The position numbers and the translations under genes are program-made. This document shows positions 28,976-30,656 of a stretch of 32,000 nucleotides of DNA, one piece after another (the first letter of the stretch is position 1; every line of letters starts with the position of its first letter). The DNA comes from Verrucomicrobiota bacterium (GTDB taxonomy: Bacteria; Verrucomicrobiota; Verrucomicrobiia; Opitutales; LL51). The notes under the pieces were generated by a model, which ran no database searches, was not told where the DNA came from, and saw only the letters and a list, made by a program, of their open reading frames with translations. The DNA lies in assembly GCA_021294815.2 (NCBI GenBank), contig CP095464.1, positions 90,001 through 122,000 on the forward strand, written 5' to 3'.

Positions 28976-30656
28976 ATGAAAAAGATCACTAAAATTTCTC
29001 TGATCGCGGCGTGCTTCTTGGGCGACATGGCGTTTTCACATGGAAGTGTTGAAGCGCAGTCATCAAGTTCCCGCTTCGAGAGGTTCCTCGCGAGATACGG
29101 TTATAACAGCCTTGGGGAAAAGGTTTCTGCGGATCAACAGCCTCAGGCTGCGGTTGCCGCTCAATCCGTAGCACAGATGGCAAAGACTTCGAACAGTCAG
29201 CCGACGGCAAAGGTAACTGCACAAGTCGCGCAAATACCTGTATCTTCTGCAGCTCCGAGTTCCCGCTTCGAGAGGTTCCTCGCGAGATACGGTTATAACA
29301 GCCTTGGGGAAAAGGTTTCTGCGGATCAACAGCCTCAGGCTGCGGTTGCCGCTCAATCCGTAGCACAGATGGCAAAGACTTCGAACAGTCAGCCGACGGC
29401 AAAGGTAACTGCACAAGTCGCGCAAATACCCGGTATCTTCTGCAGCTCCGAGTTCCCGCTTCGAGAGGTTCCTCGCGAGATACGGTTATAACAGCCTTGG
29501 GGAAAAGGTTTCTGCGGATCAACAGCCTCAGGCTGCGGTTGCCGCTCAATCCGTAGCACAGATGGCAAAGACTTCGAACAGTCAGCCGACGGCAAAGGTA
29601 ACTGCACAAGTCGCGCAAATACCTGTATCTTCTGCAGCTCCGAGTTCCCGCTTCGAGAGGTTCCTCGCGAGATACGGTTATAACAGCCTTGGGGAAAAGG
29701 TTTCTGCGGATCAACAGCCTCAGGCTGCGGTTGCCGCTCAATCCGTAGCACAGATGGCAAAGACTTCGAACAGTCAGCCGACGGCAAAGGTAACTGCACA
29801 AGTCGCAAAAGCTTCAAGTTCCTCCCAGGGTAACAGTCAATCCAAACAGTACCGCGTATCACGCAAGGTTCCAGTGTATATTTTCACAGATCCCCACTTT
29901 GATACTGTGGCTCTCAATAAAATCGTTGAGTTGAAAAATGCGGGAGCCATTGTTGCCGTAGTTGGAGACTTCGTTGGAACAGTTAAACGTAACCCTGACG
30001 GAAGTTGTGTCGGCGGATATCATGGGAACGATCAACCTCAAAAGATAATCGACATTCTTAAGAATGGTAGAGGCACCTCCGGACATATCGTCGCGGGATA
30101 CGGCAATCACGAATTCTACTCTAAAGAATTTTCAGGGAAAATCGATAATCTCCAAAAATTTGGAAAGGCTTTAACGGCTGCTGGAGTAGAACCGACGAAT
30201 TTATGTCCCGGGGATAAAGGAGCAGCACCATACGTTAAGATCGGAAACTGCTACTTTTTTTCCTATTCTACTGAGGAATACAGTCAATCTATGACGAACG
30301 AAGACAAACAACAATACGAGCGGTGGAGTATTAAGAAGATAGCTGATGAAATCAAACGAGTTTGTGACTCTAAAACGGAAGAGATTTTTCTATTAAATCA
30401 CGCGAAGCTTAGCGAGTCCGAGAAAATTACAACTGGAGTTATTCAAAGACTTCAATCGTTTTCAAAGGGATTAAAGTTCGATTTAAATAAAGTTTATATC
30501 ACGGCTAGCGCTGCGCACGATCACTACTACAGTGGCCCCCACGCAAAGTGGTTGAATATCAATGGCAAGAGAGTATTGCAAGTATTCCCAAAACCGGGCG
30601 TATACTATGGTCAGTTAAAGGCTAGTGGCAAACGAAGCTTTAAAAAGTTGCGTTAA
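28976..30656 (+). pseudogene. Secreted repeat-containing metallophosphoesterase, split into two track ORFs (28976-29491 and 29562-30656) by a 1-nt insertion inside the tandem repeat
   Basis: The signal peptide is MKKITKISLIAACFLGDMAFSHGSVEA. About 3.9 copies of a 64-aa repeat follow. The C-terminal domain has calcineurin-like phosphoesterase motifs (FTDPHF, VVGDFV, YGNHEF, LLNHAK, AAHDHYY). The consensus acctgtatc reads acccggtatc at 29428-29437 in the second copy, which shifts the frame by +1. The downstream frame is open from about 29298 to 30656. Confidence 0.75.
29066..29806 (+). repeat. Tandem direct repeat, 192-bp unit, about 3.9 copies, nucleotide-identical apart from one indel
   Basis: Unit starts (agttcccgcttcgagagg) are at 29066, 29258, 29451 and 29643, giving spacings of 192, 193 and 192 bp. 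The last copy diverges after 29806. The encoded unit is SSRFERFLARYGYNSLGEKVSADQQPQAAVAAQSVAQMAKTSNSQPTAKVTAQVAQIPVSSAAP. Confidence 0.95.

Follow-up and report, generated by a model that had tools for sequence, protein, structure and literature searches.

UshA, a 5'-nucleotidase, and CpdB, a 2',3'-cyclic phosphodiesterase, are periplasmic or exported enzymes in which a Sec signal peptide is followed by a metallophosphoesterase domain; neither carries a repeat stalk. Proteins built from tandem repeats are known from intracellular bacteria, for example the TRPs of Ehrlichia and Msp1a of Anaplasma. In group B Streptococcus, the surface proteins alpha C and Rib contain long tandem repeats that are identical at the nucleotide level (PMC2191029; PMC9784991). 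Here we describe a gene that joins these two known kinds of feature, a divergent calcineurin-like metallophosphoesterase and a coding minisatellite of identical repeats. It lies on the plus strand, at 28976-30656, of a 32,000-nt stretch of contig CP095464.1 from a Verrucomicrobiota bacterium; this whole stretch is called the window, and all positions refer to it unless another contig is named. With a probability of about 0.8, we favour the reading that this is one gene for a Sec-exported, highly divergent calcineurin-like metallophosphoesterase with a homogenised repeat stalk, from an uncultured, probably host-associated member of the Puniceicoccales (Verrucomicrobiota).

The gene stands out by its repeats. 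Tandem Repeats Finder located an array at 29066-29806 with a period of 192, 3.9 copies, 99% matches and a score of 1466, the sole large tandem array in the 32-kb window. An initial annotation of the sequence had proposed four units starting at 29066, 29258, 29451 and 29643, identical save for the replacement of T by CG at 29431-29432, and both statements were borne out by Tandem Repeats Finder and by a direct comparison of the units. Cut at these starts, the units measure 192, 193, 192 and 164 bp. Units 1 and 3 agree nucleotide for nucleotide, unit 4 is identical to them across its 164 bp, and the sole deviation of unit 2 is the change from T to CG at unit position 174. A 26-mer of the repeat unit occurs four times in the window, as opposed to not once in 100 dinucleotide-preserving shuffles.

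Two open reading frames (ORFs) were found in this region, at 28976-29491 (171 aa) and 29562-30656 (364 aa). They had been interpreted as one gene split by a single indel, which proved correct: removal of one base restores a protein of 559 aa that contains 3.86 copies of the 64-aa unit. Replacing CG by T, deleting the C and deleting the G all lead to the identical protein, and there is no second lesion in the gene. The locus is one gene, frame-split by one lesion. This lesion turns the wild-type ACCTGTATC into ACCCGGTATC and consists of two edits, a synonymous T>C exchange and one extra G, which create the short runs CCC and GG and place a CCC-G quadruplet in frame. The 364-aa downstream piece (P0001) is the only part of the gene in the protein database. 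We also considered a gene on the opposite strand, where a 270-aa ORF spans 28989-29801, and rejected it: the frame is open as a by-product of the repeat, and its translation is nonsense with a Cys/Arg/Leu-rich periodicity. Likewise, "terminator-like" matches on the minus strand merely recur once per unit.

The history of the array could be addressed through a sister lineage. A search with the neighbouring exonuclease led to a 2140-bp contig (L016; ENA sample ERZ14208469, run SRR14411247, coverage about 7x), the exonuclease of which is 94% identical to that of the window at the amino acid level. The contig also holds an ortholog of the window gene, convergent with the exonuclease gene and cut off by the contig end, with a nucleotide identity of 94.5% overall and 95.1% in the catalytic domain. 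Both the unit and the exit from the array read as in the window (...EKTSSSQPTAKVTAQVAKIPVSSAAP / SSRFERFLARYGYNSLGQKV...AQVAK / ASSSSQG...). L016 opens with a 55-nt stretch that is repeated exactly 192 nt downstream. It follows that two or more copies of equal period exist in the sister lineage and that short reads could not cross them; an overlap of 55 nt at a contig end is what would be expected of a k=55 de Bruijn assembler at a tandem-repeat branch. Of the sister array, L016 shows about 1.4 units. Sister and window unit differ at 11 of 164 nt, whereas no differences exist within a genome, the window lesion aside. At unit positions 114-164, where two L016 copies can be compared, all four lineage differences are common to both L016 copies and to all window copies. 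Units that are identical within a genome and diverged between genomes, in an array present in both, are the signature of concerted evolution. These comparisons favour an array that predates the split of the lineages and was homogenised by unequal crossing-over or gene conversion rather than just expanded. Of the two explanations first put forward for the perfect identity, recent expansion and ongoing gene conversion, the latter is thus favoured and the former is not, since the sister has a 192-bp array and the lineage substitutions are shared.

The ratio of nonsynonymous to synonymous substitution rates (dN/dS) between L016 and the window is 0.17 in the catalytic domain and 0.23 in the repeat part. 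These values point to purifying selection, and by that of the domain the gene was functional until very recently. The contig of the sister metagenome-assembled genome (MAG), L001 (CAMWJR010000060.1), was the closest one in a genome-collection scan with PFK, the gene on the other side of the locus. It extends only 33 nt beyond the tblastn match to the PFK start, on the upstream side, and so falls short of the repeat. Given the ends of L001 and L016, the sister promoter, signal peptide and most of the array are absent from both contigs. In a search of the JGI metagenomes for other strains, an exact-pattern scan tolerating either allele of the lesion site gave no matches and a profile-guided scan no confirmed loci; an exact look-up of P0001 returned no record.

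These data also bear on the question whether the array, or its copy number, could be an artefact of assembly, that is, a collapsed, expanded or mis-threaded repeat graph in which CG is a population variant or an error bubble in one unit. Perfect 192-bp units exceed any short-read k-mer, and Tandem Repeats Finder also fits a 385-bp period to the same array, with 100% matches. The sister short-read assembly breaks at the array, on the 55-nt inter-unit stretch, so that the warning of assembly risk in the initial annotation was justified. But tandem layout, period and junction occur independently in the sister lineage, so the array is real, and the reading frame is kept through every unit junction of the window gene. 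The doubt is limited to the exact count of 3.86 units, and an assembly artefact is unlikely.

We then turned to the nature of the unit. A search of the 64-aa unit against domain databases, as advised in the initial annotation, found no curated family for it in Pfam or NCBIfam. Pfam Psb28 and Yos1 passed their whole-protein cutoffs, but only through the sum of four weak partial matches, and NCBIfam TUL4 and BamC stayed far below theirs. All four hits are made up of weak matches added together over the low-complexity portion of the unit, none of them significant by itself, and were discarded. In a single-sequence AlphaFold model, the first ~20 residues of each unit have a predicted local distance difference test score (pLDDT) of 65-84, with a helix at RFERFLAR, and the remaining ~44 residues a pLDDT of about 30. 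According to this model, each unit may begin with a short helix-turn motif, RFERFLARYGYNSLGEKV, and continue as a disordered stretch of about 44 residues rich in Ala, Gln, Ser, Thr and Pro. The unit motif does not occur elsewhere in the window. The GC content of the unit is 54%, compared to 42% in the remainder of the gene, and amounts to 0.61, 0.53 and 0.48 at codon positions 1, 2 and 3, respectively. The excess is confined to codon positions 1 and 2 and not found at position 3, and therefore reflects amino acid composition; a foreign origin of the repeat and GC-biased gene conversion were rejected on these grounds.

The C-terminal ~265 residues of the repaired protein form the metallophosphoesterase domain. 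The Pfam family PF00149 (Metallophos) matches residues 299-479 of the repaired protein with 24.3 bits against a gathering cutoff of 21.5, which is a small margin, and is also precomputed for P0001. Three uncharacterised metagenomic proteins, P0002, P0003 and P0004, share this domain and together with the window protein make up the family. In an alignment of the four members, D28, H30, G53, D54, G99, N100, H101, E102, H198, H237 and H239 are invariant. In the final motif (GHxH), the window protein has Ala in place of Gly (AHDH). An AlphaFold model of the domain, built on this alignment, has a mean pLDDT of 75.7 and a predicted template modelling (TM) score (pTM) of 0.80. In a Foldseek search of the PDB with this model, all 13 matches at E<=0.001 had the metallophosphoesterase fold (Mre11, the B subunits of polymerases delta, epsilon and zeta, and an archaeal PolD chain), and SMPDL3A followed just below this set. 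The viral database BFVD gave 32 matches at E<=0.001; nearly all of the named ones have the metallophosphoesterase fold, and several are unnamed. The structural matches have a Foldseek probability of 1.0 and TM-scores of 0.4-0.5, at 8-13% identity to solved structures. Searches of the PDB by sequence, with phmmer for the single sequence and with a family profile, returned nothing meaningful. Taken together, the proposed assignment to the calcineurin-like phosphoesterases holds, because PF00149 scores above its cutoff, all five motifs are present (Table 1) and the significant PDB fold matches are all of this superfamily. Membership in the metallophosphoesterase superfamily is secure.

Relatives of this protein are scarce. 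Word-indexed searches of 5.8 billion protein clusters, one with the complete protein and one with just the domain, returned no protein other than the 364-aa piece of the window itself. When 1.84 billion representative proteins were searched exhaustively with phmmer, only P0002, P0003 and P0004 were found, at 30-36% identity as that search reports and 27-32% by pairwise BLASTP. Among themselves, the three are 41-48% identical; the window type is therefore a fast-diverged branch. By these searches, the family is very rare and lineage-restricted. None of the three relatives (0/3) contains the 64-aa unit. P0004 is the positional homolog (27-30% identity): it is encoded between PFK and 5'-3' exonuclease genes, as in the window, and has a signal peptide followed by a short His/Pro/Lys-rich linker. 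Its flanking proteins are 79-80% identical to those of the window, so the locus has evolved far faster than its neighbours. P0002 has no spacer. P0003 (contig L013, ENA ERZ18774621, 28% GC) carries 6.8 copies of a different repeat, of 24 bp (PPSGSSWN, 97% matches; L013 8061-8222), which immediately precede the catalytic domain and correspond in position to the window array. This protein has an N-terminal extension of ~340 aa with no obvious signal peptide, and its neighbour genes are mostly without a Pfam match.

In the window, the phosphoesterase gene lies between the exonuclease and PFK genes, on the opposite strand. Homologs of the exonuclease at 55-63% identity are named Puniceicoccales bacterium, and the PFK is 92% identical at the amino acid level to that of L001, a MAG labelled uncultured Verrucomicrobia. 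In a more distant Puniceicoccales MAG (L018 6001-8189, JGI 3300042596), compared with window positions 27505-31602, exonuclease and PFK genes are neighbours on one strand, separated by 90 bp and no other gene, which makes the phosphoesterase gene a lineage-specific insertion. Another MAG has a wholly different arrangement. As a side observation, PFK in L018 is followed by UPRTase and PBP genes, which adjoin the paralog P0002 in L014. This layout hints at a history of local rearrangement or duplication of the family.

The N terminus of the protein is signal-like, with a basic n-region (MKKITK), a hydrophobic core that spans residues 7-20 and peaks at a Kyte-Doolittle value of 2.7 and, by inspection, a putative cleavage site with small residues at -3/-1 (VEA or alternatively SHG). 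Judged by hydropathy and inspection only, it is thus Sec-like, in line with the signal peptide proposed in the initial annotation, which suggests that the protein is exported via Sec. The N-termini of P0002 and P0004 resemble it. A lipoprotein was considered because of a lipobox-like IAAC and rejected. The rule applied here was [LVI][ASTVI][GAS]C with the Cys about 15-35 residues from the start and an uncharged h-region before it; the Cys is residue 13, and Lys3 and Lys6 fall inside the stretch that has to be uncharged. The ORF listing contains no upstream in-frame start that would accommodate a lipoprotein. Cys13, in an [IV]A[AIV]C-like context, is kept in all three members with a signal peptide (the window protein, P0002 and P0004), lipobox-like but too near the N terminus.

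The lesion itself can be explained in several ways. It had been argued that the site is not in a homopolymer and that the frameshift may thus be real. The argument is weak, as this is a complex two-edit change in the copy furthest from unique sequence. We give even odds to an intact gene, with CG at 29431-29432 as a consensus or polishing error that survived in the middle of the repeat, where short reads are not uniquely placed. A combined substitution and insertion is unusual as a spontaneous mutation. Of the three copies of the site, the affected one lies deepest in the repeat: the nearest unique sequence is at a distance of 366 bp on one side (29065) and 375 bp on the other (29807), while the remaining two copies have a flank within about 175-185 bp. 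No other break of frame occurs in the roughly 29 kb of coding sequence, an unbroken 9.9-kb ORF included. The other units have an in-frame T, as does the sister ortholog, which reads ACCTGTATC in frame at this site, and the catalytic domain is under purifying selection, with no relaxation. That an 878-kb contig crosses a perfect repeat of 741 bp points to the use of long reads or scaffolding. However, a systematic context-dependent error of long reads should recur in the three identical contexts and is seen once. The indel error rate in the window is very low, which makes a random error within just these 741 bp (about 2-3% of the window) unlikely a priori, and polishers do not create alleles that are missing from the reads.

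The lack of errors in the identical sequence context of units 1 and 3 also fits a real frameshift, to which we assign a chance somewhat short of even. The gene would then be a very young pseudogene: its product would be a secreted fragment of 171 aa (signal peptide, 1.9 units and a 20-aa nonsense tail), and the catalytic domain would be lost or made without a signal peptide from the internal Met at 29562. The ORF structure (171 aa and 364 aa) agrees with this. Moreover, the gene is accessory, lineage-specific and dispensable, as judged from the adjacent exonuclease and PFK genes in the more distant Puniceicoccales genome, and loss of accessory exported proteins is common among host-associated bacteria. 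Against a pseudogene, the rest of the gene is free of lesions, and the dN/dS of 0.17 relative to the sister does not indicate relaxed selection. Ongoing homogenisation should also erase or spread such a variant fast, and the complex nature of the T>CG change speaks against a spontaneous mutation. The start of the downstream ORF does not help here. Within 25 nt upstream of 17 gene starts in the window, essentially no Shine-Dalgarno motif was found (a bare 4-mer in two cases), and the organism appears not to use Shine-Dalgarno-led initiation; the absence of such a motif before 29562 is therefore uninformative on re-initiation. On balance, we lean slightly towards an artefact over a real lesion. 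If real, the lesion is extremely young.

A real lesion could also be leaky or regulatory, if a +1 slip of tRNA-Pro at CCC-G restored ...QIPVSS... and allowed low-level synthesis of the full-length enzyme. In the frame ATA CCC GGT, skipping the G indeed gives GTA TCT, that is, the wild-type sequence VS, and in E. coli systems the UGG isoacceptor of tRNA-Pro is prone to +1 shifts at CCC-N sites, CCC-G among them (PMC4519876). Away from the second-codon position, however, spontaneous slippage at such sites does not exceed about 1% (PMC4519876). No stimulatory element can be recognised, and the site is not conserved, with in-frame CCT GTA in the sister ortholog and in units 1 and 3. The same lack of conservation makes a programmed +1 frameshift gene of the prfB type very unlikely. 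A leaky lesion is also moot if the lesion is an error, and we regard it as very improbable.

We therefore return to the single gene for an exported phosphoesterase with a homogenised stalk. Several points weigh against this interpretation. The Pfam score is barely above its cutoff and the TM-scores are 0.4-0.5; membership in the superfamily is nevertheless solid. Export was judged by eye from the N-terminal sequence. The folded motif in the unit comes from a single-sequence model, which is weak evidence, and the function as a stalk or tether is one that we infer. The count of 3.86 units is the assembly's own figure and open to doubt. Finally, with ~1.4 sister units visible, independent expansion in both lineages would also account for the arrays, but is less parsimonious.

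Under the favoured interpretation, a stalk of 3.86 identical 64-aa units would separate the signal peptide from the catalytic domain. The array would be minisatellite-like and derived from the common ancestor, with unequal recombination or gene conversion keeping its copies identical. Recombination between units would also render the copy number labile and make assembly from short reads impossible. The stalk may serve as a length-adjustable spacer or as a multivalent tether that places the enzyme in the envelope or outside the cell. By analogy to other exported members of the superfamily, the enzyme may hydrolyse external phosphoesters such as nucleotides or nucleic acids. The T>CG lesion, as the sole difference between units, would be a fresh inactivating mutation or a consensus error. 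A more far-reaching combination of these ideas is improbable: the unit would be a module in its own right, not described before, in which a helix-turn binding motif of 20 aa is joined to a disordered spacer of 44 aa. It would serve as a multivalent tether of a fast-evolving exported phosphoesterase to a host or envelope ligand in a type III secretion-bearing bacterium, its valency tuned by unequal recombination, with the CCC-G lesion as a genuine leaky off-switch.

The locus calls for caution with assemblies, and spanning reads should be obtained before a pseudogene call or the repeat count is trusted. It would provide a clean small case of concerted evolution in a bacterial coding minisatellite, with an array common to two lineages and homogenised in each, and the repeat could be a ready-made marker for strain typing. 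The phosphoesterase family is extremely rare, and its N-terminal spacer has gained repeats independently at least twice. It sits in a little-known clade of Verrucomicrobia with an injectisome. The organism is probably host-associated, as suggested by the injectisome protein SctV, the SctY chaperone and the adjacent giant orphan ORF in the window. If this applies to the clade, the protein would be a reasonable candidate for a host-interaction or nutrient-scavenging factor. The features of the gene are compiled in Table 1.

Table 1. Parts of the phosphoesterase gene and their positions in the window.
Feature	Position	Strand	Remarks
Whole gene	28976-30656	+	One base removed at 29431-29432 gives 559 aa: signal peptide, 3.86 64-aa units, short Ser/Gln-rich linker, metallophosphoesterase domain
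Probable Sec (type I) signal peptide	28976-29056	+	MKKITKISLIAACFLGDMAFSHGSVEA, followed by Q; hydropathy window and inspection
Repeat unit 1	29066-29257	+	192 bp, 64 aa: SSRFERFLARYGYNSLGEKVSADQQPQAAVAAQSVAQMAKTSNSQPTAKVTAQVAQIPVSSAAP
Repeat unit 2	29258-29450	+	193 bp; bears the lesion
Repeat unit 3	29451-29642	+	192 bp; identical to unit 1
Repeat unit 4	29643-29806	+	Partial unit of 164 bp; no difference from unit 1 across this length
Lesion	29431-29432	+	CG versus T in units 1 and 3 and in the sister ortholog; net +1 base; in frame ATA CCC GGT
Premature TAA	29489-29491	+	Shifted frame, after the 20-aa out-of-frame tail GIFCSSEFPLREVPREIRL
Downstream ORF	29562-30656	+	364 aa; first start is a Met inside unit 3; without signal peptide
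Metallophosphoesterase catalytic domain	29862-30653	+	Pfam, alignment, AlphaFold, Foldseek
DPH motif	29889-29897	+	DxH
GD motif	29964-29969	+	
GNHE motif	30102-30113	+	
H motif	30399-30401	+	NH(A)
HDH motif	30516-30524	+	(A)HDH

Other parts of the window were inspected as well. On the minus strand, an injectisome-type type III secretion cluster extends over 9811-18131. It includes SctV (11049-13151; TIGR01399, 881 bits against a cutoff of 692) and the SctY chaperone (13148-13537; 79 bits against a cutoff of 70), flanked by ORFs of 413, 562 and 870 aa without a family match, the first of which is Glu/Pro-rich. Directly downstream of these genes lies a giant orphan at 2-9883, also on the minus strand: a stop-free frame of at least 3294 codons that runs off the left end and has no Pfam or NCBIfam match. 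On the plus strand, 20398-23305 encodes two adjoining, slightly overlapping paralogs of 440 and 551 aa that are NamZ-like (exo-beta-N-acetylmuramidase). The region in which the phosphoesterase and exonuclease genes converge contains, at 30681-30704, a hairpin (GGGGAG...CTCCCC) with TTT after it. It was not called by a consensus scan and may be a shared terminator.

Compared with known systems, the window protein has the five metal-binding and catalytic motifs and the predicted fold in common with the calcineurin-like superfamily PF00149, where the nearest folds are those of the Mre11/SbcD nuclease, the phosphodiesterase-like domains of polymerase B subunits and archaeal PolD, and SMPDL3A. In contrast to these proteins, it has a probable signal peptide, lacks a capping or DNA-binding domain and reads AHDH instead of GHxH. 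It resembles UshA and CpdB in the order of putative signal peptide and catalytic domain, which makes a scavenging of external phosphoesters or nucleotides plausible by analogy. The similarity in sequence ends at the superfamily motifs, however, and Pfam gave no match to the C-terminal substrate-binding domain of 5'-nucleotidases. Its closest relatives have the same catalytic domain, and P0004 also the same position and P0003 an N-terminal repeat of its own, but they differ in lacking the 64-aa unit. The unit is not homologous to the repeats of alpha C and Rib or to those of the intracellular bacteria, and the window repeat is predicted to be mostly disordered and is fused to an enzyme, whereas the streptococcal repeats make up the bulk of an adhesin or antigen. 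The copy number of alpha C and Rib is labile, and a similar lability would be expected from the mechanism in the window gene. As in these proteins, the units are long, in frame and nucleotide-identical, bear the signature of concerted evolution and belong to a protein that is predicted to be exported.

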